DNA of 24,017 bases from a virus, in the UHGV virus genome UHGV-0096010. One strand, 5' to 3'. The number at the start of each line of letters is the position of its first letter. The stretch's first letter is position 1. Under the pieces are notes generated by a model. That model was given only the letters and a program-made list of their open reading frames with translations, did no database searches and had not been told where the DNA came from. The position numbers and the translations under genes are program-made. Below, in pieces: positions 1-18,489 of the stretch.

Positions 1-49
1 GCCTCTTTTATGATTATCTCGTTACAGAGCGTTTCATAGGCGTTTAAGG

Positions 50-727
50 CTATTGTTTAAATACTGGCGTTACAACGTCTTGCCCTGGGCTTTTTTGATT
101 TTTCTGTTCTGTTGTATTTACCTGCATTTTAACCTGTCCCCCTACAGATTTATTTGGTGCTGTTTTTACAGCAATAGCATTAGTGGTGGCCTTAGAGACA
201 AGACGAATTTGCTCAAAATCAAGAGTAAACAATAAGCTTTCGCTTGCTTCTTCTTCGTAAGACATGCCAACTAACACAACGTTGTCATAATTTTTTAACT
301 CAGTGACAAGTAGGAAAGGTTGGCGACTGTCCATCAACTGATTTAGGTATTCAAGCATAAGCATACGTCGATTGCCGTTAATTCCCGCATTCTTAATCAT
401 ATCGGGATTGAGTTTCAATACGGTTTCAGAGATACGCCCCTGTAATGTGAACTTGTTATTCCGTATTTGAACATGATCACTAACTTCTGATCCTGATTCG
501 ACGGCATAGCTTGTAACGTCTGCATTTCGGCTAACTTTCGTCGATTCCACGTTATCAAATGATAATGCCCGGTAGTCATTGTAAGCAGCATTTGCACCAC
601 TGCCGAGGTTAGAGGTAATAATCGCAAAGCCGTTACCCCCTTTAGTTGTTCTACCGTTGCTATCGTTGCTTGTGCTGTTGATTTTCGCCTCAGTCGGGCG
701 ACCAATGGTTAACGGACCCATTGCCAT
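50..727 (-). CDS. hypothetical protein (225 aa), possible virion/tail structural protein
   Basis: ORF with ATG at 727 preceded by AAGGA Shine-Dalgarno; last gene of a co-directional block directly downstream of the tape-measure-like gene; no motif recognised by eye. Confidence 0.4.
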   Translation of the reverse strand: MAMGPLTIGRPTEAKINSTSNDSNGRTTKGGNGFAIITSNLGSGANAAYNDYRALSFDNVESTKVSRNADVTSYAVESGSEVSDHVQIRNNKFTLQGRISETVLKLNPDMIKNAGINGNRRMLMLEYLNQLMDSRQPFLLVTELKNYDNVVLVGMSYEEEASESLLFTLDFEQIRLVSKATTNAIAVKTAPNKSVGGQVKMQVNTTEQKNQKSPGQDVVTPVFKQ

Positions 728-774
728 AATTTGTAATCCTTATTTAAGGGGGCTAAACAGCCCCACAGTGATGA

Positions 775-2616
775 TTAATAGGTTGACCCGCCTGACATAA
801 CACCCAGCGTTAATAGCTTGCTAAACTCAGCGGAGGATGCCTTTGATTTGAAGTCGATAAATTCGCTCAATCGTCCGGTGTCTGATTCGATAGTTAGCGG
901 CACTTCTGCATTTACTTGTAATTCTGGATTGAAGTTAATAACAGGTGCAAAGGTGTAAGAAGGAGTCTTGATAGCTTGTTGTGCTGCACTCTGTTTCAGA
1001 TTTGCAATGTTTTGTCCTTCGAGAGTGTATTGATTTACAGCCTGCGCCCCGCCTACCGTTTCTTCTGGCGTAAACCAGCCTTTAATAGTGTTAAACAGGG
1101 AATTGCTGTTATCTGGCTTAGTTGTTCCGGTGCCAGCGCCTTTATATTGATCAGGAACGAGATTAGAAAGATTCTGTTTCATCCCTTCGTTAGACAGTGG
1201 CGGTGCATCACCTAAATTCTTCTGAATAGCTTCCGTCTTCTCGTCGTTTTTCATCAGCCAGTTGATTGCTTTCATTACGGCGTTAACCAATCCGCCGATA
1301 GCCTCGCCTAATTTGGTAAACATTGGCAGCATTGCAACCATACTCTTTTTGAACTCTTCAATCACAGCAGGATCGAGAGATTTCATAAAGCCATCAACAA
1401 AGGCGATCCCTTGTGAGTCAGAAAGCCCACTAAGTGCATTATTCAGTTCACGGAATTTAATAACGCTTTCCTGTTGTGCCTGTGTTACCCAGCGCCCTGA
1501 TTCTCGTTGTTCTCGTGCTGATTGTTCCACTTCTTTAGCGGAGCGTGTCCAGTATTTAGAGGTGAGCATCAAATCATCAGCCAGATCTTCCAGACGACTA
1601 CCGATTTGTGCATCTGAATAGCCTTTAGCTACCATTCCCTGAACTGCTTTACTAACCAGACCAGCCGGATTATCAGCAAAGTCTTTTAGATCCTTTTTAG
1701 TTAGGAATCCTTCATTCATTAAAGTATTGATGCCGCTATCGCCGCCCTTCCATTCTCCTTTACCAGTTTTCTTATCAACTACATATTCAGCTTCATCATA
1801 AGATTTGGTTGCACGTTCACGCACATCTTTCATCTGATCCAGATACTTACGTTTACCTTGTTCGCCCATCATTGAATCAACGCCGTTTTTATACGCCCAT
1901 TGTTCAACATCGTTCATCTGGTTAACGTCTACACCGCCCAGCTTCGCACGGCTATACAATTCACCCAGCGTTTCAGCATTCGCAAAGCTGTTAGTAACAA
2001 ATTCAGAGGCTTTGCTCATAGCCATATACGTAGCGCCAGCGCCTAAGCCACCCAGCATAACAGCCGCAGCACCGCCGCCAATACTCCCGCTACCCTTAAC
2101 AGGTGCATAGGCTTTAGCGTGAGCGTTACGATTGCCATTAATCTTACGTTGTTGCTGTTGTAGGCGTTTCATTTGGCTATTCATACGTGCCAGACTAATA
2201 GCGCCTCTTTCATATTGGAGGGCAATTTCTCTAGCCTGTGCAATAGCTTTATATTGTTCCGCTACAGAAAGACGGTGCATTGCACTAATGCTTGATCCAA
2301 CGTCTAAAAGCTTTAATTCTGCCTTCTCTTTGCGTGCTGCCAGGGCTTTTTGTTCTCTTGCAACTACACGTTGAGCGGCTAATTGTGCTTTAGCATTGGC
2401 TTTATCTGCCTGTGCTTGCTTTTTAGCAATATCGTCTACGTCTTTTTTTGCTTTAGCGGTTGATTGTTTATGTGTCTTAACACGCAATTCTATATCTTTC
2501 ACCGCCGCCATTTGTTTACGAAGTTTTTCTACTTCTGCTTTTGCTTTCTCTAATGATGGTCGATCAACCTGGAAGGTGACAACGTTTGATAAGCGGCTGA
2601 CGTTAAGTTCTAACAT
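775..2616 (-). CDS. tape-measure-like / minor structural protein (613 aa)
   Basis: ATG at 2616 with AGGGAAA SD; N-terminal ~170 aa K/A/E/Q-rich (coiled-coil-like); central Gly-rich hydrophobic stretch GSGSIGGGAAAVMLGGLGAGATYMAM; composition typical of phage tape-measure proteins; family not verified. Confidence 0.45.
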   Translation of the reverse strand: MLELNVSRLSNVVTFQVDRPSLEKAKAEVEKLRKQMAAVKDIELRVKTHKQSTAKAKKDVDDIAKKQAQADKANAKAQLAAQRVVAREQKALAARKEKAELKLLDVGSSISAMHRLSVAEQYKAIAQAREIALQYERGAISLARMNSQMKRLQQQQRKINGNRNAHAKAYAPVKGSGSIGGGAAAVMLGGLGAGATYMAMSKASEFVTNSFANAETLGELYSRAKLGGVDVNQMNDVEQWAYKNGVDSMMGEQGKRKYLDQMKDVRERATKSYDEAEYVVDKKTGKGEWKGGDSGINTLMNEGFLTKKDLKDFADNPAGLVSKAVQGMVAKGYSDAQIGSRLEDLADDLMLTSKYWTRSAKEVEQSAREQRESGRWVTQAQQESVIKFRELNNALSGLSDSQGIAFVDGFMKSLDPAVIEEFKKSMVAMLPMFTKLGEAIGGLVNAVMKAINWLMKNDEKTEAIQKNLGDAPPLSNEGMKQNLSNLVPDQYKGAGTGTTKPDNSNSLFNTIKGWFTPEETVGGAQAVNQYTLEGQNIANLKQSAAQQAIKTPSYTFAPVINFNPELQVNAEVPLTIESDTGRLSEFIDFKSKASSAEFSKLLTLGVMSGGSTY

Positions 2617-2650
2617 GCTAATTGTTTCCCTGTATTATGATTGTTGTTTA

Positions 2651-2848
2651 TTATTGTTTTTTAGAGCAATAGTATTGAATTGCTTCGAAAGTGCTGCATC
2701 CAGTCTGAAAGACACGCTGACGCACATTATTTGCATCAATTTCTAAAAGGCGGCAAAGCGCCGATGTGTTTATAACTGATTCCTCGCTAATAGCTGCCAG
2801 TTCTTTTACAGATTTAAGAATTAATGCCTGTGAATTTTCTGCGTTCAT
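2651..2848 (-). CDS. small hypothetical protein (65 aa)
   Basis: short ORF between the 343-aa and 613-aa genes, same strand; position compatible with a tail-assembly chaperone but no direct evidence. Confidence 0.3.
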   Translation of the reverse strand: MNAENSQALILKSVKELAAISEESVINTSALCRLLEIDANNVRQRVFQTGCSTFEAIQYYCSKKQ

Positions 2849-3002
2849 TGGTTTTCTCTCACATATATATTTTTATTTGGGTTTGTAGACAGTAGAAAAA
2901 AATAAGGGCAAGAGACAGCGCATATTTTGCTTATATGATTATCCCTTACCCTTATTGCCCCGATTATTTCCAGACGATGGGGAATCGTCTATTAACGCTT
3001 TA

Positions 3003-4034
3003 TTACGCAGCAGATCCGAAGATGATAGCTTGCGGAATGTTGTTTACTGGCAGATAAGATGTCTCAGTAACCACAGATGGGAATTGGAATTCATCCTTGA
3101 TTAGATATTGGTGATGTAACACGGCATCTTGACCTAACTCAGCATGACGCACACCAACGCCGCTATGAAGCTGATAGCACTGTGCCGCTTTATCCATTAC
3201 TGGAACAATTGCGAAACCGTTCTCTCCGATGTGAGCAACAATCTCAGGAAACATTGACACATCAATAACAGTGATCCCACCAATCTGGAAAGAGTCATAG
3301 GCTGGGTTAGAATCAACCATACGGGTAAACAGGGCCGTAGCACTCGCATCACCTGCATATTTCACCATGTCACTGATCAGCGGGTTAGATGACAAACCAT
3401 CAGCAGCAGCGCCAGCAGCAAAGATAATTACACCAGTTCGCTTTGCAGCAAGACCAGACCCCAGCTTTTCACTCTGTAAGCGCACCGCTTTACGAATAGC
3501 AAGGAACGGGTTAACAGTAGTCGATGCAAAGTCGATAGCGGGTACCGTGGTTTTAGCCTGACCGTCGAGGAAGTCGAGATCACCTTGTCCGGCATATTCA
3601 GATTCAACTTTCAGGCCCAGCAGCGCGGTAATCAGATCCACTTCAACACGGTTTGCGTGTGAACGGTAATGAGCCTCAGAGAAATCATTAACCGCTACCA
3701 GCATAGCATCAGAACGGTTTGGATATTGGCGGCTGTATTGTTCCAGGTCACGAGAAGTAACAGCGTTAATACTGCCGACGTGTTTCATCTGGAAAAGTTT
3801 GTTTGACCATTCCTGACGTTTAGAGGCGTTCCAGTCGCTTTGAGCGTAAGGCGAGGTTTCCCCAGCTACCTGCACAAACTGATCAATCAGGTCGGTAAGA
3901 AGAATGCTGTTTTCTGTATGATATTGCACATCGAACAGATCGAGATTAGTAATCAGGGTATTAAGTGCATTCTCATAAGCAAATGGAGTTACTACCGCAG
4001 TATTAACGCCAAAATATGTTGATAAATCATTCAT
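3003..4034 (-). CDS. hypothetical structural protein (343 aa), candidate major capsid or major tail protein
   Basis: ATG at 4034 preceded by AAGGAA SD; large ORF in co-directional block; no catalytic or nucleotide-binding motif seen; assignment by size and context only. Confidence 0.5.
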   Translation of the reverse strand: MNDLSTYFGVNTAVVTPFAYENALNTLITNLDLFDVQYHTENSILLTDLIDQFVQVAGETSPYAQSDWNASKRQEWSNKLFQMKHVGSINAVTSRDLEQYSRQYPNRSDAMLVAVNDFSEAHYRSHANRVEVDLITALLGLKVESEYAGQGDLDFLDGQAKTTVPAIDFASTTVNPFLAIRKAVRLQSEKLGSGLAAKRTGVIIFAAGAAADGLSSNPLISDMVKYAGDASATALFTRMVDSNPAYDSFQIGGITVIDVSMFPEIVAHIGENGFAIVPVMDKAAQCYQLHSGVGVRHAELGQDAVLHHQYLIKDEFQFPSVVTETSYLPVNNIPQAIIFGSAA

Positions 4035-4048
4035 TATTATTTTCCTTG

Positions 4049-4432
4049 TTAAGTCGTAGGGATCGCAAGTTCTTCATAACCAGCAATTACAAAGCCGAGA
4101 GATTGCAGTTTTGCAATAACACTTGCCTTTTCCATACTGTTAAATTCAATCCCATCTTCAGCCAGAATAACGAAAGTAGGATGTGCAACCACTACGCTTT
4201 CCTGTCCTTCATAAGCCGGTTCAACCACTACGTGAGCAATATCAGAAGCGGTTGTTGCTTTGGTGCCATCGGCTTTCAGCAAAGCCCCGACAATAAGATC
4301 GTCAGTGAGAGGTGAAGCCAGTTTGACGAGGCGATCTTGCAGCACTGGATCAGCAGCGTAAGCTACTACCTTACAGCGTGAACGGGAATTATCCGCATTC
4401 ACTGCTTTTAATTTTCCATATGGGTTAGCCAT
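4049..4432 (-). CDS. hypothetical protein (127 aa)
   Basis: ATG at 4432 preceded by AAGGAA SD; 14-bp gap to downstream 343-aa gene (operon-like packing). Confidence 0.45.
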   Translation of the reverse strand: MANPYGKLKAVNADNSRSRCKVVAYAADPVLQDRLVKLASPLTDDLIVGALLKADGTKATTASDIAHVVVEPAYEGQESVVVAHPTFVILAEDGIEFNSMEKASVIAKLQSLGFVIAGYEELAIPTT

Positions 4433-4436
4433 AAGA

Positions 4437-4634
4437 TTATTTTCCTTTCAGTTGTTTAATTTTAGATTTAAGGGCATCAGCAAGACTAACCGCATCAGCC
4501 GATTTAAATAATTGAGCAGTGGTAGAACGAAGACTTTCGGGAGTAACTCCCAACAGTGCGGCAACCTTAATGAGGTTTTCATCACTAACAATCATCGTTT
4601 CCCCGTCTTTGCTGATAATCATTTCTTGTTTCAT
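4437..4634 (-). CDS. small hypothetical protein (65 aa from internal ATG)
   Basis: ORF-track start at 4676 is TTG; in-frame ATG at 4634 (MKQEM...) has AGGAA SD 8 nt upstream, so the shorter form is preferred. Confidence 0.35.
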   Translation of the reverse strand: MKQEMIISKDGETMIVSDENLIKVAALLGVTPESLRSTTAQLFKSADAVSLADALKSKIKQLKGK

Positions 4635-5615
4635 AAATAACGTTCCTGTTAGTGCCAGACAAATAAAAAGCCCCAATGCCGTAAGAGGTTCTGACCAGCA
4701 AAGGGGCTTTAACGTGCGGGCAATTACATAATTGATAAGTTAAACTATAAGAGGATTAAACATATCAGCAAATACACTTTTTAAATATACTTGATGATAT
4801 GCTTAAAGGGTGAATAGATACTCCTGAAAACATGCTCTTAAGAAAACATGCGGAATCAATCAGGAATATCTATTCGGGGCGCGGTGGCTAACCGCTATCT
4901 TTCATGGTGTGGATGCACCAGTCAGATTTTAAGGAATCACTATTCCAATCTACTCACAGATTAAATTTTTAATAAGGATTAACTACACCAACAGTAATCT
5001 ACCGTTTCAGAAAATCGTTTCACAACCAAAGATTATAGATCCGCATTCTATAAAACCCGTTTTGCTATCAATATTTCCAAAGTTTATTGCACCATTCTTA
5101 GCTAAACTCTCTCTACTTGCGGCTAACGCTATGCAGATGATAGTTTTTTGACAACAACTTAATAGATTATTCTGTTACTAACTTCCGTCATTAAATAAGA
5201 GTTTAATGATGTTAGTAAATAGTTATAAAATATAACTATCAGTGTAAGGCTCTTTAATGTTTTCGGACAAAATAAGGAGCTTTAGGATAAGCATAGATGA
5301 AAAATAAGAGCGGGAAGGGCAAGGAGATAACACCTACCCGCTTTTATCAAAAATTAAGCACAATGCCTAACAACATTCATCAACACAACGTAGAAACAAT
5401 CAACAATCAAAGAGGGAGTTATGATTATTCTAAAACTTCTTGATAGATGGAAGGTAATATTTGTTAGAGGTTAATGCCACTCAACCTTTGAGGCTATCAC
5501 CTTCCATATGCAGGGATTTATGACAGTAGAAGGATTAACACCAACTAAAATCTTTTAATCTACCCCTAAAATTATTATATAACAAAATCATCATAAATGC
5601 AAATGATTTTCATTA

Positions 5616-5918
5616 TCATTTAGAGAAAATAGCACTTTTTGCTAAATCATTTACTAATTGCTGAATCTCTTCACTTGCAGCCTTTAACGTGCTGGCGGTG
5701 TCTGTGATGGTTTGAGTGCACATCTTGGCATCTGATAGCTCTAAATCGCTCACCAGAGAGACAAAATCTTCTAAGCATACATTGAGCTTCATTAAGCTAA
5801 TAACGCATTGAGAGAGCGTATAATCGCATAAATCTGAATAGGCTTGATTTATTCTTGTTTGTAGTGAGATAGTCAGATCTAAAAGTTGTTCCATTGCATT
5901 GCTAATATCTTCTTCCAT
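5616..5918 (-). CDS. hypothetical protein (100 aa)
   Basis: ORF whose ATG overlaps the stop of the upstream gene by 1 nt (TAATG), indicating coupling. Confidence 0.35.
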   Translation of the reverse strand: MEEDISNAMEQLLDLTISLQTRINQAYSDLCDYTLSQCVISLMKLNVCLEDFVSLVSDLELSDAKMCTQTITDTASTLKAASEEIQQLVNDLAKSAIFSK

Positions 5919-6163
5919 TATGCGTATTCTCCTTGTAATGCATCATTAATCATATTCAATACGATGTTAAAAGGTGTCTTGAGCGTCAGCACTTCATCAC
6001 GGTAACGTTCTAATGCTTCGTAGTCTTCTGTTTCTTTTGCCAGCCGGATTAACTCAGCATAGTTTTTTGCATCAGACAGGAGCATCTGAAATAATTGTGT
6101 TTCTTGAATATAGCCAATCATTATTTTTCCTTTTTCGAATATTTTCATTGGGCGCTTATACAT
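5918..6163 (-). CDS. hypothetical protein (81 aa)
   Basis: ORF in same-strand small-gene cluster; no clear SD; start uncertain (ATG at 6163 or 6148). Confidence 0.3.
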   Translation of the reverse strand: MYKRPMKIFEKGKIMIGYIQETQLFQMLLSDAKNYAELIRLAKETEDYEALERYRDEVLTLKTPFNIVLNMINDALQGEYA

Positions 6164-6178
6164 ACGCCCGTCTTTCTA

Positions 6179-6559
6179 TTAGTTAGAACGTTTGTTAGAT
6201 GCGAGAGTGTCGATCAGGTGCTGCATCAGATCTGTTTCTGTAACGCCGCCTACCTGATTGTTGAACGAATTGAAGCCTGTATAGTGACGAAATGAGGTAA
6301 AGCCTAACAATTGCCATTTCTTCAATGTGCCAGGTTCTATAATCGTTGTCTTTCTTGTTCTGGGTTTGAAATACACACCATCACCCATTGATTGAATAAT
6401 TTCTAATTCTTCGTTTGTAAGTGGTGGGCTGTTAGATTCTAAAATGAAGACTATCTCTTCACCTGCTTCTTCATTATTCTTATAAACTTGCTTTCTTACG
6501 TCGTTGAAGGTGTTCCCTTGCTCAATACGTTTTAAGTTGTTCTTTTTCTTTCTTCCCAT
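6179..6559 (-). CDS. hypothetical protein (126 aa)
   Basis: ATG at 6559 preceded by AGAGGGAAA SD; basic N-terminus MGRKKK. Confidence 0.45.
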   Translation of the reverse strand: MGRKKKNNLKRIEQGNTFNDVRKQVYKNNEEAGEEIVFILESNSPPLTNEELEIIQSMGDGVYFKPRTRKTTIIEPGTLKKWQLLGFTSFRHYTGFNSFNNQVGGVTETDLMQHLIDTLASNKRSN

Positions 6560-6693
6560 TTTCCCTCTTTTTATGTGGATTATAAAAACTGAATGCCATA
6601 GTTACGATGAATATTGCTACAAATGCACTTGCCATATGTATTGCCCGATCTGTTGTTACTGATTGTTTGTGATGTTATAAATCATTTATTTCC

Positions 6694-7263
6694 TTAAAAG
6701 GGTAGTGAATCATATATTGTGCTCTCACTTTTGAGATCAATTATCAAAGAGTCAAAATCATTTTCACAAAGATAGATATTCTTTGAATCTAATGCTCGTT
6801 TTACAAAATCTTCTGTTTCTTCGTGCGGTGGTTTCTTCTTATCAAGGGAAAGAAGCCAAGTAAAAATTTCGGGCCGCTCAGGGAACTCTGGCTCTTGTGT
6901 TTCTTCTTCAACGATGATTTCGGAAACATTCAATATTTCATTAGATTCGTCTTCTTTCTCAGAAGGATCAGGTAGTGATGATTCTCCTTTTGGAATATCA
7001 AGCACTCGATAAAGGTTAGAGCTTCCTGGTCGTGCATCTTTTATAATTAATCCCATTTCGAGCAATTTCTTAACCCTTTCTTCTGCTGCTCTTGGTGTTA
7101 TGCCAAAAACATCGCCTATCTTAGCGTAAGAGGGAAATGCACGATCAAACCCTCTCAGATAGCAGTAAAGGTTTTTAGCACTATCTGTAAATTTATGCCC
7201 GTTTACTTGGCTTATTTTTAGAATCCACATAGGAACTTTTACAAATTGTTCTTCATTAATCAT
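6694..7263 (-). CDS. winged-helix/HTH DNA-binding protein, replication-initiator-like
   Basis: preferred ATG at 7263 (MINEEQ...) with AAGGAG SD; N-terminal pattern F.K.P..L......KLY.YL......FPS...I....G.....A...V..L...GLI resembles phage/plasmid Rep-type HTH domains; acidic C-terminal half; family not verified. Confidence 0.4.
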   Translation of the reverse strand: MINEEQFVKVPMWILKISQVNGHKFTDSAKNLYCYLRGFDRAFPSYAKIGDVFGITPRAAEERVKKLLEMGLIIKDARPGSSNLYRVLDIPKGESSLPDPSEKEDESNEILNVSEIIVEEETQEPEFPERPEIFTWLLSLDKKKPPHEETEDFVKRALDSKNIYLCENDFDSLIIDLKSESTIYDSLPF

Positions 7264-7316
7264 TAAAAATCTCCTTGATGTAATCACGCTCTACGGCGCT
7301 ACTATGGTGATAAAAA

Positions 7317-7487
7317 TCACTTGCTTTTGTTTGAGAGTGTTTCAGCCTCTCTTTTCAACATATCAAGAATGTAATCTGTAACAGTGATACGTTTACTTCT
7401 GGCTTCTTTAAACAACACCTGAAATACTTCATCAGGAATATGAAAGCAAGTGCGTGGTTGCCTTTTCTTTTCTGTAGTTTCGCTCAT
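7317..7487 (-). CDS. small DNA-binding protein, ribbon-helix-helix-like
   Basis: preferred ATG at 7487 (MSETTEKK...) with GGAGAA SD; segment RTCFHIPDEVFQVLFKEARSKRITVTDYILDML looks like a beta-strand plus two helices as in CopG/Arc-type repressors. Confidence 0.4.
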   Translation of the reverse strand: MSETTEKKRQPRTCFHIPDEVFQVLFKEARSKRITVTDYILDMLKREAETLSNKSK

Positions 7488-7506
7488 AGTTTTCTCCTTC
7501 TCTTCT

Positions 7507-7707
7507 TTACTCTGTTTCAGATTCTTTTTCAGATCCTTTTTCATTTTTTCTTAATTCATCAATAATTTTTAGTGCATCGTCAAAGCATTTTTCACGCTCT
7601 GGATAACCACAGCGTCGCGCTGTGTTCCTGTTCATCCTTACTTTAAAACGGTTGATCTCACCACGTTTCCAGGCTTCCACAATATCCTGTGGAGTGAAAT
7701 ATTTCAT
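7507..7707 (-). CDS. hypothetical protein (66 aa)
   Basis: ATG at 7707 preceded by strong AGGAGG SD; first gene of the leftward small-gene cluster. Confidence 0.45.
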   Translation of the reverse strand: MKYFTPQDIVEAWKRGEINRFKVRMNRNTARRCGYPEREKCFDDALKIIDELRKNEKGSEKESETE

Positions 7708-7950
7708 TAATTAACCTCCTATTCTATTTAGTTAAAAGAAATAGACACCTTGCAAGCCTTGGGCTTCAAAGTGCGATGCATTGGTTTAATTATTTAAAGG
7801 ATAAGAATGTTTTCCTGCCCCTAATATTACTTTACCACGACTAAAGGCTTTTGTCAACCCCCCAGCCATAAAAATATTGATCATTTTCAGTGTGTTATGA
7901 TTTTTCTTAGCAATTCGTGCTCTTACGAATACTCCAATTCTTCATTATTG

Positions 7951-7980
7951 TCTAAAACGCTCTAAAACGCGTTCTAACGA
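7951..7980. repeat. tandem 10-bp direct repeat (TCTAAAACGC x2 plus degenerate third copy)
   Basis: read directly from sequence. Confidence 0.6.
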
Positions 7981-8550
7981 GGTTTTGATAAAAACAATAC
8001 ATTCCCTTATGTAATGGCTGTTTAGCTCGCCTACGGTTTGATTTAAGCGGTAGAAACTCATCTACTACCTAACATCTTTAAACCATATTTTTCTTTTTTG
8101 TCTGTTTGATGGTTGATCTATAGTTATGCGTTAGCATCCCCAAAGGGGTAACGCTACCCTAATTGCATTCGCAAGAACATTGCACAAGAAATTTATTTTA
8201 GATGATTGATGATCGTTAGATGGTAGTTAGTTAATTATCGTTCTGCGCACAGCGCAAGACTATTTAGCCTTACGCAAGCCGTAGGCTATTTGCACATAGT
8301 AGATTACATATTCGTTGTGAGCGGAAAGCGAACATAGATCTACTAACTAACATTAACAAACAAAAACTATGTGTTATGAGAAGTATCAGTCTAACTGACT
8401 AACACTCTAACTTGTGCAAGGTTCTGGCGAATGCCAATAGATTAAGGGATAGTCGAAGACTCCCTAACGGGTATCCCTATAATTATTCTTTAAAGATAAA
8501 AGAATTTATAAAAGATAATTTAATTGTAGTTTGATAGTTGATCTAATAGG

Positions 8551-8687
8551 TAACAAAATTCTGTAGGGGTGGCTAACAGTTTTCTGTGGGGGTGTCTAAC
8601 ATAATTCTGTTAGGGTTGGGGTAACAGTTTTCTGTTAGGGTGCATATTTCTTTAAAAGTTAAGGATAACAGAATTCTGTGGGGGTAG
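8551..8687. repeat. iteron-like array: five direct repeats of ~21 bp, core TAACA-N3-TTCTGT-N-GGGGT
   Basis: copies at ~8551, 8574, 8597, 8622 and 8666; four are tandem with ~22-25 bp period, the fifth follows an AT-rich gap; non-coding context 0.8-1.3 kb from the Rep-like gene. Confidence 0.6.
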
Positions 8688-9641
8688 CTCACAGTGACCT
8701 ACCGTTACATCCATCACATAACATCTGTGCAATGATCTTCTTATAATCAGTAAAAGTCTTTCTTGCTATCAAAAATTAAACATCTAAAACAAGCTTAAAT
8801 TCAAGATTAATTGATGATTAATCCCTGTGTAATTCCATACTAAAAAATCCAAGAAAAATGGCTTCAAAATGCAATTCTTACTTTCTTCACTTTTGCGTCA
8901 TCATCAGCAAAGCCTTATGTTATGCGGCATATAGCGCATCACTGCAAAATTGTTGCTCAATAAACGTTCTATCATTTGTTGAACAAGTTCTTTCACGTGT
9001 TGAAAATTTATGTTTAAATTTGCTTTCAATCTTTAATGTGCAATCACTATCAACATAAAAATAAAAAACCTTCCATTATATTTCATAGCATACAAAAGTC
9101 AATAGAAGCCCTCTCGTGCTCCTACGTAAAAAATCCACCATTTTTCCCCTGATACATCAACTCAAGGCGTTCTATGTGTTCCTTAGTGCATATTACGATT
9201 ATTATGTTAAATGGATTTTGGCCTATATTTTGACCTGCACCCGCATAAACACTGGTTTCATCGCTTACAGCCCTTGTGAGACGTGGTGCTGTTTCTAGCA
9301 TCTGATCCGACATAAAACCGATCATTCTCGTGTTTAGTGAAAGTTTAGTGAGAGACATTACAGAAAGGCTTTCTGTGTAATGATTTAATAGGTAAAAACG
9401 ATGTTGATTACGCAAGAAAATTCCTTGCTGATATTTGGGGATTCTGGATTTTCCAGATCGGGGGGCGCTGAAAATCGCGTTAAGCACTTCTCGCAATCTA
9501 GCCATAAGGGAAGGGATATAGGTATTTAGATGTATTTATAGCTATTTATTTTTTATTTATCTTTATTTAAAAATAACCTTATAAATCAATAATATACAGA
9601 ACAATCTGTTTATATTTTAATCAATTAAATCAAGTTTAATA

Positions 9642-9674
9642 CCCTTAAATACCCTAAAAATAGCCTTAAATACC
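9642..9674. repeat. two copies of CCTTAAATACCC spaced 21 bp apart in an AT-rich tract
   Basis: read directly from sequence; a partial third copy (TAATACCC) lies just upstream. Confidence 0.45.
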
Positions 9675-9839
9675 CCAATAATTAATTTTAAGGCTTTCCG
9701 TGTTCTCTTCTGCATTATGAAAATGCAAAATAAGGCACAAAACAAGCTCACAGACGCATTAAACACACATCACCTACACATCCCTATACCAAGCAATGAA
9801 AACAGCGTTATAATGCGTCCTGTTGCGTTCTGGAGATTT

Positions 9840-9998
9840 TCAGAAATCCTCTCTAAGCCATTTCAACTCACTAAGGAGTTTTCTTTCTTCGTTCTCTCGT
9901 TGCTTACGCTCTAGCCAGGCTTTTCCTTCTGGCGTAGACAGGAACTTACGAGCGTGAATCTTGCGGTTATTACGTTTGATAGCTGCAATGTTTTTCAT
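9840..9998 (-). CDS. small basic hypothetical protein (52 aa)
   Basis: ATG at 9998 with AGAGG SD 7 nt upstream; translation MKNIAAIKRNNRKIHARKFLSTPEGKAWLERKQRENEERKLLSELKWLREDF; not in ORF track because it is under 60 aa. Confidence 0.25.
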   Translation of the reverse strand: MKNIAAIKRNNRKIHARKFLSTPEGKAWLERKQRENEERKLLSELKWLREDF

Positions 9999-10603
9999 CG
10001 TGTGCCTCTGTATTCATATGAAAATTAACAAGTTACATACTACACAGGGAGACTACGCATAAAACACAATACAAGTAAAGATACATTTTCAAGACAATAG
10101 GAGCCATAAAGCGCCTTTGATGGTTATACCAAAAAATAAGCGCCGTAGGCGTATCCACTAAAAAGGGCTTTTTCACAAAAGCTATGAAGTCTTAGCAGTT
10201 CTTCTCTTATCAGGCACCCGTTGTACTCCGGTGGACGAAACCGTGCTAGAGCTTGATTCTTTCCCGATCAAGTTAGGTTTTGAAGAGGTGGGCTTTAATC
10301 CACTATTGCACTTAAAACTCTTCCCATCATTTAGCCTGTTTATCCTCTGCAACGTCTCACGACGTGTAGCATCATTGGACACCGCGCCAGGTGTGGAACA
10401 TCTTGCTAAGAGTTTTGGTAGAAGGTTTAGAGACGGTGGCACGTCTTCCAGCTTCAAAGGAACTTGTTACGAGGTTGAGCCTGGGAACTACTCGCCCATA
10501 CGTGTTACACTACCAAAGCCCATAACAACGTATAGGCGTTTGTAAGTGATAACAGAAGATACAATTTCTTAGAGAAGTTAAGCTAAGTTATTGATTTTCT
10601 TGA

Positions 10604-10649
10604 TGGTGCCGATAATAGGAGTCGAACCTACGACCTTCGCATTACGAAT
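10604..10649 (-). tRNA. 3-prime 46-nt fragment of a tRNA-Thr(CGU)-like gene (anticodon-loop through CCA); integrase attachment-site type repeat, not a complete tRNA
   Basis: minus-strand reading ATTCGTAATGCGAAGGTCGTAGGTTCGACTCCTATTATCGGCACCA shows a T-arm (GTAGG/TTCGACT/CCTAT), acceptor 3-prime strand, discriminator and CCA; sequence upstream of it cannot form the D-arm or 5-prime acceptor strand; matches from memory the 3-prime half of enterobacterial thrW. Confidence 0.6.
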
Positions 10650-11048
10650 TATAAGAATCCGCTTCTAATTCAAAGCATTACCCCATCAACACTGCGCTCA
10701 CACGTCCCACCACATCAAAACATGTAAAGCCTTGCAAGTCATTGCGAGGCCTTATGTGTCTCAGTTTTGTCCCACCTTGTATTACGACTTGCATAGCCAA
10801 TGAAGATAAATGTGACGACAAACGGCGCAGCAGTCTTCTTTTCCTTCATACTTTCCCCACCCAGCATGCATACCTTCTACCATAACTGTAGTGAATGTCT
10901 GTTATGAGCGAAAAGCGGACAGGAACATTCTGGTTAATAGATATCAATGCTAACAAAAAAGCTCCCGATGGAGATTTTGAAACCGCTTCCACATAATGAG
11001 ATAAAAGGATTTATTTCTGGTCATGCCCACACATTGACCACGTCGAAG

Positions 11049-11175: not shown

Positions 11176-13501
<2,326 letters not shown>

Positions 13502-13802
13502 TTTAATTACCTTATATATCCAAACTCTTAATTTTCTCTTTTTTACCATAGGATTAATCCAAAATAAAGACCTTGTTGACTAAACCCTCATGTACAAAAT
13601 GCACACTTACTCAAAAGGATCTGGAGGTAATCTCGACCTTCATGATTTAGTTCCTAGGGATAAGCAGAAATCTAGCACTGGATTAAAATTTAAAAATAAT
13701 AATCAATAGGTTATAATGGTTTTTATTCGCATCCATGGGATCTGCTGCTGCCCGCATGATGTTGGATGCGACGGCGATGGCACGACCTCACCCGGTGAAA
13801 CG

Positions 13803-14249
13803 ATGAAACGCGAAAGGGTTGTTCTTCGGGAAGGTGCAGTTGGACTTTCAATCGATGCCGTTGCAAAAGAGGCTGGCGTCAGTAAGGCAACGGTAATGTA
13901 CGATCATAAGTCAAAGCAAGATTTGCTCAGCGATCTCATCAGTCGCCTTATGCCAGTAGAGGAGGAACGTGTTCAGCAAGCGATAGCGGAAAGTAATAAT
14001 ACCCCACATCCCGCACTCTATGGGCGAATTATTTCAGCCAGTAATGCTCTCAGTCATACTGAGAGAGCAATAGTGCTGGCGGTCAGCGAATCGTTAACTA
14101 ACGATACGAATATCAGGGACACCATGCGTTCCTGCACAAACAAAGATTTGGATGAGATAAAAAGAGGACCAAAACCAGACGTTGCCGTCCTGGTATATTT
14201 GGCGTTATCTGGTATCTACTGCCAAGAATTTTTTGATTTTTACAAATGA
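13803..14249 (+). CDS. TetR-family-like transcriptional regulator (short, 148 aa)
   Basis: N-terminal HTH LSIDAVAKEAGVSKATVMYDHKSKQDLL fits the TetR signature; preferred ATG at 13803 with GGTGA SD; the longer ORF-track start 13716 overlaps a TATAAT hexamer and is probably not coding. Confidence 0.5.
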   Translation: MKRERVVLREGAVGLSIDAVAKEAGVSKATVMYDHKSKQDLLSDLISRLMPVEEERVQQAIAESNNTPHPALYGRIISASNALSHTERAIVLAVSESLTNDTNIRDTMRSCTNKDLDEIKRGPKPDVAVLVYLALSGIYCQEFFDFYK

Positions 14250-14576: not shown

Positions 14577-15131
14577 TCATTTATCTCCGACCGGAAACTT
14601 CTTATACAGTGTCGATACACCAACATCATAGATGATCGCCACCTTCTGGCGAGGAATTCCTGCTGCAATTAATCGTCCGGCCTGCGCCCATTGTTCTGGT
14701 GTAAGTTTGGGACGACGTCCCCCAATTCGTCCCTGTGCGCGAGCAGCTTCCAGTCCAGCTTTTGTTCGTTCAATAATCAGTTCTCGTTCCATTTCAGCCA
14801 GGGCACCCATCACATGAAAGAAAAAACGCCCCATCGGTGTGCTGGTATCAATAGCATCCGTCAGGCTGCGAAAATTAACGCCACGTTCGCGCAACTCCTC
14901 AACCAGAATGACCAGATGCCGCATACTACGCCCCAGCCGATCCAGTTTCCAGACAACCAGTGTGTCACCTGCCGATAATGTCCTGAGCAGTTTTTTCAGT
15001 CCCGGCCTTTCGGACTTTGTACCGCTTATCTTGTCTTCAAAAATCAGCTCGCATCCTGCACAGTTCAACGCATTACGTTGTAGATCTGTGTTCTGGTCAT
15101 TTGTTGATACGCGTACATAGCCAATAAGCAT
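14577..15131 (-). CDS. pin: Gin/Pin/Cin/Hin-family serine DNA invertase
   Basis: start at MLIGYVRVSTNDQNTDLQRNAL; conserved VWKLDRLGRS, GRFFFHVMGALAEMERELIIERT and C-terminal HTH GIPRQKVAIIYDVGVSTLYKK; lies immediately beside an invertible tail-fibre segment. Confidence 0.9.
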   Translation of the reverse strand: MLIGYVRVSTNDQNTDLQRNALNCAGCELIFEDKISGTKSERPGLKKLLRTLSAGDTLVVWKLDRLGRSMRHLVILVEELRERGVNFRSLTDAIDTSTPMGRFFFHVMGALAEMERELIIERTKAGLEAARAQGRIGGRRPKLTPEQWAQAGRLIAAGIPRQKVAIIYDVGVSTLYKKFPVGDK

Positions 15132-15185
15132 GGTAGATCCCCCTGACAAAAGCAGGAATGATGCCATTTGCTCGTTATTTCTGCA

Positions 15186-15211
15186 TTTTCATAAACGTTG
15201 GTTTGAGAGAA
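15186..15211 (+). other. invertase crossover site (gix/hix-like), distal
   Basis: TTTTCATAAACG-TT-GGTTTGAGAGAA; imperfect 12-2-12 dyad matching the Hin/Gin site pattern, inverted relative to the partner site at 17052-17077. Confidence 0.7.
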
Positions 15212-15832
15212 GGTTCATTTGGGTTCAGAAATCTGGTTACCTTCACAACGGCTGGAGTAACAAGCTGGACTGTTCCTGAAGAGTTGCGCAAAGGAAGAAA
15301 ATGTTACGTCAAAGTTATTGGTGGCGGTGCGTCAGGAGGGATAGGTTCAACAACCGCTTCAGCCGTTACATGTGGCGGAGGAGGTGGTGGGGGCGGAGTT
15401 GCTGAGGGACTGGTAGATTTAACTGGTATAAACAGTGTTTCGATTACGGTTGGTGCCGGTGGTGCGCCTGTGTCTGGTATTTCTGTAAACGGTAAAAATG
15501 GTGGCTCGAGCAGTTTCGGGACTTACATGTCAGCTTCCGGAGGCTATAGCGGAGGCCAGCCTTCCGGAGGGTTAGGCGCAGTTGGTGTCGGGGGAACAAT
15601 TAATACATCGCTTGGGCCAGGTTCTCCAGGTTCCATTGCTTCTGCCGCATCGGGGGCTGGTAATGGTGGTTCTGGTGGTGGCCCCGGAGGAGCAGGTTCA
15701 TTCAGAGATACAGCTAACGGAAAAGCGGTATCAGCAGTTGGGCCTGGAGGTGGCGGTGCAGGATTATGTCCTAATTCATCAACGGGTCAGTCGGGTGCCG
15801 GAGCAGATGGCGCAGTTTATATTTACTGGTGA
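15200..15832 (+). CDS. alternative tail-fibre C-terminal cassette (silent orientation), glycine-rich
   Basis: open frame from the crossover site to TGA at 15830-15832; no start of its own; begins ...NVGLREGS like the expressed fibre at its crossover (...NLGLGEGS); Gly-rich with poly-G run, resembling adhesin-tip regions. Confidence 0.55.
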   Translation, partial: GLREGSFGFRNLVTFTTAGVTSWTVPEELRKGRKCYVKVIGGGASGGIGSTTASAVTCGGGGGGGGVAEGLVDLTGINSVSITVGAGGAPVSGISVNGKNGGSSSFGTYMSASGGYSGGQPSGGLGAVGVGGTINTSLGPGSPGSIASAASGAGNGGSGGGPGGAGSFRDTANGKAVSAVGPGGGGAGLCPNSSTGQSGAGADGAVYIYW

Positions 15833-15839
15833 GGTTCAT

Positions 15840-16010
15840 ATGTGGGCAAGAATTGAAGAAAATAAAGTAGAAGAGATAACGGAAATTAATCCTGAAGGAA
15901 GATTCCATCCATCATTAATATGGAAAGAATGCCCTGCTGACACACAGCAGGGGGATTTATATATTGATGGTGAGTTTATTGCGCAGTCTCCGGCAGTTCA
16001 GGCCAGATGA
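15840..16010 (+). CDS. small ORF (56 aa) downstream of alternative cassette; candidate alternative fibre chaperone or truncated tfa-prime
   Basis: ATG at 15840 with GGTGAGG SD 7 nt upstream; converges on and overlaps the 3-prime end of the minus-strand Tfa gene. Confidence 0.35.
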   Translation: MWARIEENKVEEITEINPEGRFHPSLIWKECPADTQQGDLYIDGEFIAQSPAVQAR

Positions 16011-16584
16011 CATCCGGCGCGGTGCTGGTATCTGTTGCCGTCACCGCGTCAATGTAATCCAGCACGGCGTTAAGTCGGGTTGTTTCTGCCAGCGTCAACT
16101 TCCGTCCGGCCTGTAATTTCAGCTGAATCAGACTAATGGAAGCCATTGCTGCATCAATCAGTGACTGGCGCTGTGCTTCTGCCGCGTCTACTGCGGCACT
16201 ATGCTGTGCCTCAGTATCGGTCACCCATTTCTCACCATCCCATTTATCATATGGCGTTAACGGGGCGATAGTGGTTGTATTTTCAGGGTAATCACCCGGA
16301 GCTGTGATTTCTTTCGATTCTCCTGTTTCGGTGCTATAGATGATTTCACCGCGATGGTCTGGCACATATTCCCATGAGTTAAAATCTGCAGAACGGCAGA
16401 TTGCATAACCAGTTTTGTATGAGCCAGGAGCATCTAAACAGGAACATGCCGGAATGCCGACACCCACAGCAAGATATTCATTTGAAGTGGAAATATATTC
16501 CCGTATTTCACCATCATAGTTATAGACGGTAATATTCCCTGCCTTCGTGGCAATAATCTCGCTATTTAATACAGCGTTATCCAT
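15976..16584 (-). CDS. tail fibre assembly protein (Tfa / gpG-gpU family)
   Basis: 202 aa; ATG overlaps H stop by 1 nt (TAATG); C-terminal region with W..KW.TDTEAQ...STAPDVIWPELP typical of caudoviral tail-fibre assembly chaperones. Confidence 0.75.
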   Translation of the reverse strand: MDNAVLNSEIIATKAGNITVYNYDGEIREYISTSNEYLAVGVGIPACSCLDAPGSYKTGYAICRSADFNSWEYVPDHRGEIIYSTETGESKEITAPGDYPENTTTIAPLTPYDKWDGEKWVTDTEAQHSAAVDAAEAQRQSLIDAAMASISLIQLKLQAGRKLTLAETTRLNAVLDYIDAVTATDTSTAPDVIWPELPETAQ

Positions 16585-17885
16585 TATGCAGCCCTCACAA
16601 TATAATTAAAGGCAATGTTACGTGGGCGGTTCTCATTTGCGGTTGGGACAACGGCTGAAGCATTAAAATTCGCATACAGGGAGCGTTGATACCCGGATGC
16701 TGATGCACCACTTAATGCGGGAGCTTTTGACTCCGAAGCCGAAAAGGCCCCTGACACGTATCCTAATAACCCTTGTGAATCGCCAATTGAACTGTAGCCA
16801 ACCACCCCGGTAATGTTTCGGATAGCATCTCCTTGTGCTGAAAGCAGAGTTCGCCCACTATCCACTCCCTTTCCACCATCCCAGCCACGAATAAACTCAC
16901 CGCGTAAATCAGGCAATTTTAACGTCGGGTAAGCCTTTGCCAGATTAGGGTAATCTTCAGCAGAAAAAGCCGCACCGTTGCATTTCAGCCAGCCTGTTGG
17001 CGGTGTGGCTGAAGGCCATGGAACAGGCACACCAACAGGCAGCGCAGAGCCTTCCCCTAAACCAAGGTTTTGTAGAAAAACAGAAACGTTTTCTATGTCT
17101 GAACCATTTGCCGATTTATCCATCTTTCCAGCGAGTGAATTTGTTACGGTGGTAGCAAAGTTAGGATCATTACCCAAAGCCGCAGCAAGTTCATTCAGCG
17201 TATCCAGCGCTTCAGGCGAAGAGCCAACCAAAGCAGCAATAGCAGCCTGAACGAAAGCTGTATTTGCAATTTGAGTAGAACTATCTTTGCCTTCCGCCGT
17301 TGGCGCAGTCGGCCTGCCAGTAAGAGCGGGACTTTCTTTTGGTGCGTATTGTTTATGCGGATCAGCCGCAGCTACATGCGCTGCCATTTTCTGATCAACA
17401 TAGCTTTTCACCTGGATGATCTGATCATCAACATACTGTCGGGTTGCCAGAACTACCGAAGGGTCAATTTTCAGCGTTACGGCAGCGGTGCTGCTGACAA
17501 TCAGGATCATGCGTACAACCTGTACGCGCCCGCTTCCCTCCTGTAACTGCGGCTTATACGTTTCCGCACAGTTGGCTACGGCAATCATATCGCCGTCTTT
17601 ATCGAATAAACCGATTTCACGGATCCACCACCCGCCCTCGTCTTCAGGGATCACCTGCTCGGCAATAATCTGGTTGGCGTTATTCGGGTCAATGCTCAGA
17701 CTATTAAGCGGCTTGCGGCGCAGCTCATGAACCAGCGCCGTTTGTGCCGGGTTCGGCGTCGGCAACACGCCGTTACCATCGCCTACAGCCATCTTGGTGA
17801 TTTCAACCTGCGCACCCAATGCCGTGGCATTTGCCAGTTTCGCCGCGCCCACATTGGTTAGCACGGCATAATATTTAGTCGCCAC
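16584..17885 (-). CDS. H: tail fibre protein, P2 gpH-like N-terminal domain with tail-collar-type C-terminal variable region
   Basis: N-terminus ...NVGAAKLANATALG...MAVGDG...AEQVIPEDEGGWWIREIGLFD...AVANCAETYKP...EGSGRVQVVRMILIVSS and internal TQIANTAFVQAAIAALVGSSPEALDTLNELAAALGNDPNFATT match remembered P2 H; C-terminal LPDLRGEFIRGWD collar motif; GTG at 17885 with GGAG SD preferred over ORF-track TTG at 17906. Confidence 0.8.
   Translation of the reverse strand: MATKYYAVLTNVGAAKLANATALGAQVEITKMAVGDGNGVLPTPNPAQTALVHELRRKPLNSLSIDPNNANQIIAEQVIPEDEGGWWIREIGLFDKDGDMIAVANCAETYKPQLQEGSGRVQVVRMILIVSSTAAVTLKIDPSVVLATRQYVDDQIIQVKSYVDQKMAAHVAAADPHKQYAPKESPALTGRPTAPTAEGKDSSTQIANTAFVQAAIAALVGSSPEALDTLNELAAALGNDPNFATTVTNSLAGKMDKSANGSDIENVSVFLQNLGLGEGSALPVGVPVPWPSATPPTGWLKCNGAAFSAEDYPNLAKAYPTLKLPDLRGEFIRGWDGGKGVDSGRTLLSAQGDAIRNITGVVGYSSIGDSQGLLGYVSGAFSASESKAPALSGASASGYQRSLYANFNASAVVPTANENRPRNIAFNYIVRAA
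17052..17077 (-). other. invertase crossover site (gix/hix-like) inside the tail-fibre gene
   Basis: minus-strand reading TTCTACAAAACC-TT-GGTTTAGGGGAA, encoding ...FLQNLGLGE...; partner of the site at 15186-15211. Confidence 0.7.
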
Positions 17886-18489
17886 TTGCGATCTCCACGG
17901 TGTCAATTAAATGGATTGCCGCCCCGGTGTAATCATCACCGCCCACGGCTATGGTTTCAGGAAAATACGGGTACACGGTTAGCGTATCGCCGGAATAACT
18001 GCCCGCGCCGATATACAGATCGCCGGTTGTTTGCAGGTGAAGAGACATTCCCAGCATATGACGGCTGCACGGCTTCACATCGGCGATCAGGCGTTCAAGT
18101 TCCTGATAGGTTTCTTCACTAATGCCCTGGTCTTCCACGCCAATATCCAGCGTGAAGGTGCCCGGTGCGGTGTCGATGTTCCACCACTCGTTAACCCGGA
18201 TGAAGAAGCCGAACGGCTCCACAACCCGGCGCATGGCGCCCGTTGTACCCTTGTACTTATGCAGGTAAAACGCATCGGCCACCGCCTTTCGTTTTGTGTT
18301 TATCGGCCAGGCCTCATCCCAGCGATCAACGGAGAAGGCCCACGCCAGATAGGGCAACAGATCAGCCCGACACGTCCACGGGTTCCACAACTGGCGCAGC
18401 GGCACGGGCACTTCACCCAACGACGCACAGACGCGCGCGGCGACGCGCTCCATTCGGCTGGCGCTGGGTGGTAACAGGTCATTACTCAT
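17875..18489 (-). CDS. I: baseplate assembly protein, P2 gpI-like
   Basis: preferred ATG at 18489 (MSNDLLPP...); LLPP...LW.PW.C...LLPYLAWAFSVD.W pattern of the phage tail protein I family; synteny J-I-H. Confidence 0.7.
   Translation of the reverse strand: MSNDLLPPSASRMERVAARVCASLGEVPVPLRQLWNPWTCRADLLPYLAWAFSVDRWDEAWPINTKRKAVADAFYLHKYKGTTGAMRRVVEPFGFFIRVNEWWNIDTAPGTFTLDIGVEDQGISEETYQELERLIADVKPCSRHMLGMSLHLQTTGDLYIGAGSYSGDTLTVYPYFPETIAVGGDDYTGAAIHLIDTVEIASGD

Follow-up and report, generated by a model that had tools for sequence, protein, structure and literature searches.

Known satellites and the island in UHGV-0096010

Several described satellites resemble the locus analysed here, an integrated island of ~12 kb of which the larger part takes up positions 1–10649 of a 24,017-nt stretch of viral DNA (UHGV-0096010, hereafter the window) and that carries a block of six genes on the minus strand at 50–4634. 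P4, like the island, is an integrative element of ~12 kb with a tRNA-type site and its own replicon, a predicted one in the case of the island. Its genome of 11.6 kb fits a small capsid, and it has no capsid or tail genes but uses Sid, Psu and Delta together with a primase–helicase. The capsid-forming phage-inducible chromosomal islands (cf-PICIs) are, again like the island, enterobacterial elements of 10–15 kb with their own HK97-fold capsid protein, phages supplying the rest; they bring a complete set of genes for head and packaging, with small terminase, portal, protease and connectors, and are not known to have tail genes. A precedent for a satellite-encoded capsid homologue is found in SaPIbov5, whose Ccm protein, a homologue of the major capsid protein of the helper, is reported to change which capsid is built (PMC8569155). 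In the PLEs of Vibrio cholerae (elements that resemble phage-inducible chromosomal islands), RepA and the origin have been described with a variable DNA-binding domain and cognate iterons, and the phage ICP1 has Odn, in which a copy of the RepA DNA-binding domain (42% identical) is joined to a T5orf172 nuclease and which cuts the PLE origin (PMC8263062).

By analogy, the island appears to work most like the PLE/ICP1 pair. In both, a small integrated element is tied to a large lytic myovirus, the initiator or predicted initiator has a variable N-terminal DNA-binding domain with cognate iterons, and the phage has a chimeric nuclease in which a copy of that domain is fused to one of the T5orf172/GIY-YIG type (a type which in the coliphage protein is suggested by near-threshold matches). 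The ICP1 capsid is moreover of the same structural class as that predicted for the island, its structure (8g1r) being among the top Foldseek matches. The island does not belong to the PLE family, however, since the two have no genes in common, with no sequence relationship between PLE genes and the island, and their capsid strategies are opposite. A PLE is without a capsid gene and reshapes the ICP1 coat with an external scaffold (8g1r), whereas the island would itself provide the proteins for capsid, decoration, tape measure and tube initiator. Nor is the island a cf-PICI, because it is without portal, protease, terminase and connectors and has tail genes: on the definition of cf-PICIs used here, it differs in a head set of capsid and decoration only, with no packaging genes found in Pfam and PHROG searches, and in its two tail-core genes. 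SaPIbov5 differs as a Gram-positive cos-type PICI with a temperate siphovirus as helper, in which Ccm is reported to work with the helper capsid protein; the island, in contrast, supplies a matching decoration protein too, and its capsid protein is very distant from that of the helper. Unlike P4, the island gave no match to Sid, Psu, Delta or the alpha primase–helicase (Pfam, PHROG), and its replicon is of the winged-helix initiator and iteron type. The island is neither P4-like nor a classical PICI.

We consider, with a probability of about 0.68, that the island represents an apparently undescribed family of satellites of lytic phi92/phAPEC8-type myoviruses (Stephanstirmvirinae), the six-gene block being its morphogenesis module. 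Searches of open-access papers and bioRxiv, by protein accession among others, turned up no account of such islands or of any satellite of phages of this type. A first-pass annotation of the window, made from the letters alone, had offered a satellite, a phage-plasmid or an unrelated prophage as the source of the block. The satellite is the best of the three; the phage-plasmid is rejected as no plasmid record carries the block, and the block is not a prophage fragment. The wider picture, for which we would put the chances at about even, is of satellites present in about one in ten E. coli genomes and across the Enterobacteriaceae, which build chimeric virions from their own capsid, decoration, tape measure and tube initiator proteins on a portal, sheath, tube and baseplate of the helper, and which drive phages to a multi-headed, origin-directed nuclease with domains from several replicon types.

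The six-gene block

All six of the tightly packed minus-strand open reading frames (ORFs) first proposed, of 65, 127, 343, 65, 613 and 225 aa, are present. The intergenic gaps are 4–47 nt, except for the 154 nt that lie 3' of the 343-aa gene. This spacer (2849–3002, minus strand) reads as a terminator-like hairpin followed by a T run; in phAPEC8 an annotated terminator likewise lies directly 3' of the major head gene. Good ribosome-binding sites had been claimed for every gene, which holds for five of the six starts (AGGA/AAGGA-type), the site before the start at 2848 being weak. The guanine plus cytosine (GC) content of the block is 0.42–0.47, compared with 0.34–0.36 in the adjoining 5–10 kb and 0.55–0.59 in the P2-like region at 17.5–24 kb, a difference from the P2-like module that had been seen correctly. 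In diverged copies the block genes keep intact ORFs of similar length, and the ratio of nonsynonymous to synonymous substitution (dN/dS) is 0.06–0.29. Thus the six genes are real and under purifying selection, rather than chance ORFs. Four of the six proteins have a significant family, structure or homologue match, and with these four identified the block is a module for capsid and tail-core morphogenesis. The suggestion that the proteins might be novel folds therefore falls for four of them, leaving the two 65-aa proteins, which are without any family match.

Head proteins

The 343-aa protein (3003–4034, minus strand) itself has no Pfam match even at E-values up to 1. Its relatives at 40–49% identity carry the name major capsid protein, and when 16 sequences were aligned (among them 11 relatives and the major head protein of phAPEC8 that match), Pfam PF03864, Phage_cap_E, was matched by 12, the best at 9.7e-37. 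The AlphaFold2 (AF2) model of the protein is of moderate confidence (pLDDT 61, pTM 0.60). In a Foldseek search of the PDB its best 24 matches are all phage capsid proteins, at probabilities of 0.99–1.00, and include those of phiTE (4.5e-10), Bas63 and Sf14, the ICP1 coat protein in the small capsid of PLE (8g1r) and lambda gpE. A direct comparison with phAPEC8 gp114 gave a weak match (8e-4). In close comparisons dN/dS is 0.06. From the relatives and the modelled fold we assign the protein as the HK97-fold major capsid protein, of the lambda gpE/Felix O1/ICP1 class. It had been picked out before as a candidate major structural protein, which agrees with this assignment.

The 127-aa protein (4049–4432, minus strand) gives a better model (pLDDT 82.5, pTM 0.76), and the top 13 Foldseek matches are the decoration proteins of phiTE, Bas63, Sf14 and phage 21 (SHP), with lambda gpD further down. 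Comparison with the phAPEC8 decoration protein gp115 was not significant by BLASTP or hhalign, the PHROG match to head decoration reached just 0.068, and a profile search of the PDB with the family of the protein returned chance matches only. The family comprises 167 protein clusters, none of them named. The identity of this protein rests on the fold search, because comparisons at the level of sequence gave nothing significant; its predicted structure makes it a head decoration protein with a gpD/SHP-like fold. The earlier statement that no protein of the block resembles lambda E is contradicted by the match of the capsid relatives to Phage_cap_E and of the capsid model to the gpE class, and the decoration protein, too, has a lambda gpD/phage 21 SHP fold.

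Tail proteins and the link to Stephanstirmvirinae phages

The 613-aa protein (775–2616, minus strand) matches phrog_16051 (2.7e-33), phi92 gp134 (PDB 21vq; 1.2e-21) and phAPEC8 gp104 (2e-24), the last at ~25% identity with the first ~26 residues nearly identical. Its length compares with 659–662 aa in the helper phages, and its dN/dS is 0.17–0.22. In line with the features from which a tape measure had been recognised by eye, a charged helical N-terminus and a Gly-rich hydrophobic stretch at about residues 172–206 are visible in the translation. The gene lies directly upstream of that of the 225-aa protein (50–727, minus strand), just as gp104 adjoins gp103 in phAPEC8. From these homologies the 613-aa protein can be taken as a tape measure protein.

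The 225-aa protein scores 96.1 bits with the Pfam family Dit_like (PF21821; 2.2e-27), for which the cut-off is 24.2. It is 53% identical to phAPEC8 gp103 (3e-71), and it matches Phi92_gp135 in PDB 21vq (1.4e-53) as well as chains of phiTE and Pam3 named 'tube initiator'. Its dN/dS is 0.06–0.09. On its homologues, the protein is the tail tube initiator, a Dit-like ring protein next to the baseplate. Neither this protein nor the link to lytic Stephanstirmvirinae phages was picked up in the first-pass annotation.

Both 65-aa proteins are without a family match in Pfam or PHROG searches. The one encoded directly upstream of the tape measure gene (2651–2848, minus strand) also has no similarity to phAPEC8 gp105, which stands in the equivalent position. 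All the relatives examined have a small ORF at this place; in islands of Citrobacter, Phytobacter and Scandinavium it is a counterpart of 36–43% identity, and dN/dS is 0.04–0.29. The other, with an ATG start, is the first gene of the block (4437–4634, minus strand), and a small ORF of 64–73 aa is found at this first position in all the relatives examined.

The tube initiator and the tape measure clearly match the lytic myoviruses of the Stephanstirmvirinae (phAPEC8, phi92 and relatives), with genomes of ~145–152 kb. When all island ORFs were compared by tblastn with 150 kb of the 151.2-kb genome of Phapecoctavirus Mt1B1_P17, four proteins alone gave matches: the tube initiator, the tape measure, the capsid protein (marginally) and a winged-helix protein encoded outside the block. 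The order of the island genes (decoration, capsid, then the small ORF, tape measure and tube initiator) is collinear with that in phAPEC8, the intervening genes being absent.

Limits and spread of the island

The window from 1 to 10649 is 99.3–99.7% identical to a segment of many E. coli chromosomes, which lies between an integrase gene and the tRNA-Thr gene thrW. The 3' end of the tRNA gene recurs at both ends of the island as a perfect direct repeat of 20 bp, and the sequence of this attachment (att) repeat is ATGGTGCCGATAATAGGAGT; the island measures 12,085 bp in one record (L001) and 12,587 bp in another (L003). A sister island at tRNA-Gly has a 22-bp repeat and a length of 12,850 bp, and a further one is found near yggE, a third chromosomal site. 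One end of the island holds the integrase, a tyrosine recombinase (16692–17969 in L001, just left of the window edge), and the right end is a 46-nt copy of the 3' part of thrW (10604–10649, minus strand), which is also the left att of the next element. From the integrase onwards, the order is tube initiator, tape measure, 65-aa protein, capsid, decoration, 65-aa protein, a leader of ~1 kb, three small genes, a winged-helix initiator-like gene, an Arc-like gene and a stretch without genes that contains the iterons and is followed by a variable slot.

Among 5426 complete E. coli genomes, 570 (~10%) give a match to the block and 141 have at least 80% of it. The order Arc-like, initiator, 126-aa, decoration, capsid, small ORF, tape measure and integrase recurs in Klebsiella, Citrobacter, Kluyvera, Buttiauxella, Scandinavium and Raoultella; Phytobacter islands have the same order and also the tube initiator. 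Modules are exchanged between islands. L003 has a different set of capsid, decoration and 65-aa genes, its capsid protein being 18% identical, and L004 has a different tape measure and tube initiator, while the segments that flank the swapped modules stay 88–99% identical.

These data bear on whether the island might be a cryptic prophage that has lost most of its genes, what is left by decay of a temperate phage related to the Felix O1/phi92 type, with the six structural genes as leftovers. The collinearity with part of phAPEC8 is in its favour, as are the island copies that are broken by insertion sequence (IS) elements, and thrW is the site of the cryptic prophage CP4-6 in E. coli K-12. However, three chromosomal sites and at least eight genera show the same gene set of ~12 kb in the same order and with its ORFs intact, dN/dS is 0.06–0.29, and no remains of portal, terminase, sheath or baseplate genes were found as pseudogenes in the island. 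Independent decay would not give the same minimal set each time. As the gene set is conserved, mosaic and widespread across genera, it argues against random prophage decay, and we regard a remnant as quite improbable.

One relative, from Logan accession ERR10766091 (L025, 1–13649), is assembled as a circle of ~13.6 kb with a 30-bp terminal overlap. It has the same six-gene block and an Imm_superinfect gene, a 492-aa helicase-like gene replaces that of the winged-helix initiator, and it is without integrase or att; plasmid records gave no match to it. A 12.1-kb Logan contig that was considered as a free copy of the island was rejected, being simply broken at the att repeats and not circular. 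A circle that lacks an integrase and has a helicase-like gene is in keeping with an autonomous miniature virus or plasmid-like element, one that makes particles with no helper. Yet Pfam and PHROG searches of the island ORFs found no gene for a portal, protease, terminase, sheath, tube, baseplate or fibre, none of the first six was present in any copy examined, and a tailed particle is not buildable from such a gene set; with no match among plasmid records either, we give this explanation hardly any credence.

The predicted replicon and a chimeric phage nuclease

The winged-helix protein (6694–7287, minus strand; 189 aa from the ATG at 7263) resembles replication initiators, with matches to phrog_270, 'replication initiation protein' (1.2e-8), and to O-like families. 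It consists of a variable N-terminal DNA-binding domain and a conserved C-terminal tail. Five iterons of 23 nt with the core TAACAnnnTTCTGT lie at 8548–8686 (plus strand) and form a candidate origin of replication. L003 has the same initiator allele and the same iterons as the window, whereas in L004, L005 and L013 the initiator is of another allele and different iterons, of 22–23 nt, stand at the corresponding place. Those of L004 lie at 17954–18034 and those of L013 at about 7100–7330. Identity between the initiators of the window and L004 is concentrated in the C-terminal ~95 residues, the N-terminal domains sharing little, and the DNA alignment between islands breaks exactly at the N-terminal domain of the initiator and at the iterons. 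From these alignments the DNA-binding domain and the iterons appear to change together between alleles. RefSeq gives the initiator-like protein (24695–25264 in L001) the name 'LexA family transcriptional regulator' and the tape measure homologue (18775–20616 in L001) the name 'flotillin family protein', two names that seem to have arisen as artefacts from weak similarity.

The start of the initiator gene together with 41 bp upstream (window 6950–7304) has 98.9% DNA identity to the gene for gp053 of Mt1B1_P17 (L008 3328–4314). This 328-aa phage protein has two tandem winged-helix domains followed by an endonuclease-like C-terminus. Residues 1–105 are 99% identical to the DNA-binding domain of the window initiator (allele A), and residues 119–210 are 88% identical to that of the L004 allele (allele B). 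The C-terminal domain matches phrog_681, 'endonuclease' (2.4e-18). In Pfam it falls below the cut-offs for MUG113 (21.2 bits against 22.3) and T5orf172 (15 bits against 20), and in T5-like and jumbo phages its homologues bear annotations as homing or GIY-YIG endonucleases. In the orthologue of Justusliebigvirus muut, gp094 (L012 1399–2397), the nuclease domain and the second domain are kept, the latter with 89% identity to the L004 allele, and the first domain differs from that of gp053. The DNA of this first domain is 100% identical to a third initiator allele (C), carried by an island of the same architecture in E. coli RM9131, and 94 E. coli genomes match it at an identity of 95% or more. 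The full-length nuclease gene occurs in about six phage records (among them Mt1B1_P17, BI-EHEC and muut), and the island alleles occur in hundreds of genomes. E. coli B-lineage strains (BL21 and AS19 derivatives; hits H223–H226) have a helix-turn-helix gene of 75% DNA identity to the first DNA-binding domain of the muut nuclease, so a relative of the island family may be present in these common laboratory strains.

By analogy, gp053 and gp094 look like a two-headed version of the origin-directed nuclease of ICP1. They differ from Odn in having two tandem domains, which correspond to two island alleles, and in identities to these of 88–100%, compared with 42% for Odn. None of the window (allele-A) iterons was found in the 150 kb of the Mt1B1_P17 genome examined. 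The structural genes of this phage use ordinary sigma-70-like promoters, and no helper-type promoter or short motif common to island and phage stood out.

A nuclease of this kind would be expected as a phage counter-measure under either of two models, the second being that the island is a defence locus that does not spread in particles. The homologues of capsid, tape measure and tube initiator would then be poison or decoy subunits that join in the assembly of infecting Stephanstirmvirinae phages, wreck their heads and tails and so protect the population. Three island proteins are indeed homologous to those of the phage family that carries the nuclease (the tube initiator at 53%, the tape measure at ~25% with its near-identical N-terminus and the capsid protein marginally), and defences on mobile elements that interfere with assembly have reported precedents (PMC11364771, PMC10884400). 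The island has nonetheless kept an integrase, att repeats that are perfect at several tRNA sites and a predicted replicon of initiator and iterons, none of which a purely defensive locus needs, and the free recombination of modules and the many genera suggest frequent horizontal transfer. The island proteins gave no match to a PADLOC defence system, and a decoration protein would be odd as part of a poison. Since known satellites combine interference with transfer, this model is partly a sub-case of a satellite. We rank it as the main rival and judge it unlikely.

Proposed life cycle

As a satellite, the island would stay silent until a Stephanstirmvirinae phage infects the cell, and would then excise. 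It would replicate from the iterons by means of its own initiator and borrowed replication enzymes. Its capsid and decoration proteins would build a shell on the portal and scaffold of the helper, and a small shell would fit the 12-kb genome; the small capsids of P4 and PLE carry genomes of about this size. The tape measure and tube initiator of the island would enter tails otherwise made of helper parts, where they might mark the tails for the satellite, spoil the tails of the helper, or both. That the N-terminus of the tape measure is conserved suggests that this protein may still dock with a helper tail component. The phages would answer with a nuclease that bears DNA-binding domains copied from the island initiators, presumably cutting the origin of the island.

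A number of points weigh against this reading. Excision, replication, packaging and transfer are all deduced from sequence. The island capsid is only ~24% identical to that of the helper, so that compatibility with the helper portal and scaffold is an assumption. The tube initiator is absent from the Klebsiella-type relatives, so the family can do without it. Neither the island itself nor its comparison with Mt1B1_P17 revealed a packaging signal, a small terminase or a helper-type promoter. Domains may have passed between island and phage in either direction, and the nuclease could be an ordinary homing endonuclease that shares DNA-binding domains with the initiators. Finally, the matches among viral contigs in IMG/VR are mostly prophage calls from isolate genomes rather than virus-particle data, and for this reason say nothing on packaging.

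Other features of the island

Upstream of the block is a non-coding leader of ~1 kb (4635–5615, minus strand) in which the longest ORF is 48 aa. A hairpin and T run at 4667–4710 stands just before the first structural gene. The leader is 88–92% conserved between islands whose neighbouring modules are swapped, and its possible roles are those of a regulated leader or a packaging site. Neither the leader nor the island as a whole gave an Rfam match, and sigma-70-type promoters and terminators are no more numerous in the island than in shuffled sequence.

The three small genes beyond the leader (5616–6559, minus strand; 100, 81 and 126 aa) have no match in Pfam, PHROG or PADLOC. The 126-aa protein is encoded by a conserved core gene of the family, with counterparts of 30–39% identity at the same position in other genera. 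A small protein of 75 aa, encoded upstream of the initiator gene together with an overlapping ORF of 66 aa (7317–7707, minus strand), has a weak match to the Arc-like repressors of phrog_582 (1.8e-3), and the position of this Arc-like gene is kept in other genera. Between the iterons and the att end is a variable slot (window 8990–9844; L003 21243–21794; L004 18615–19166; L013 5889–6428), which in several islands holds a small serine recombinase; the window copy is unrelated sequence with an unannotated ORF of 127 aa (9122–9505).

The neighbouring element

The block had been placed in an element separate from the P2-like module, which proved correct: the 46-nt thrW copy is followed by a second integrated element with the P2-like genes. 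At 10604–10700 the partial thrW copy leads into sequence 92–95% identical to the attP/int region of the Shigella phages SfI, SfII, SfIV and SfV, and together these indicate that two elements stand in tandem at thrW. The neighbour has an SfV/P22-type attachment sequence and holds the P2-like tail genes. Whether the tail genes of the block might be ordinary P2-type ones was also asked, and this was rejected, as they match the phi92 type and the P2-like genes lie in the separate element beyond the att copy.

Three co-directional genes between the att copy and the P2-like tail genes (11176–13549) encode a protein with a SIR2_2 domain (in PADLOC, ThsA-like SIR2 at 8.9e-32), a member of the Ham1/ITPase family and an adenosine deaminase that resembles the one of CARF_ADA, with a TetR-like gene nearby (13716–14249). 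They are candidate anti-phage cargo of the neighbouring element, judging from the protein families; no single PADLOC system matched the combination. Further on, at 14577–17906, a serine invertase gene (Resolvase and HTH_7, 9.6e-52) adjoins genes for a Gly_rich_2 protein, a tail fibre and tail-fibre assembly. From its gene content this arrangement in the P2-like element would be the usual layout of an invertible host-range switch.

Significance

If the island is indeed a satellite, it is the first that we are aware of in which tail-core genes, for a tape measure and a tube initiator, stand beside those of its own capsid shell. Phages of the phi92/phAPEC8 type are widely isolated with a view to therapy and biocontrol of pathogenic E. 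coli, and host range, treatment outcome and gene transfer would all be affected if a chromosomal element as common as this one parasitises or blocks them. The system would be a tractable E. coli counterpart of the arms race between PLE and ICP1 in Vibrio, and its phage nuclease would be the second known to target the origin of a satellite, in a more elaborate form. The swapped alleles of capsid, tail and replicon amount to a natural experiment on the specificity between satellite and helper.

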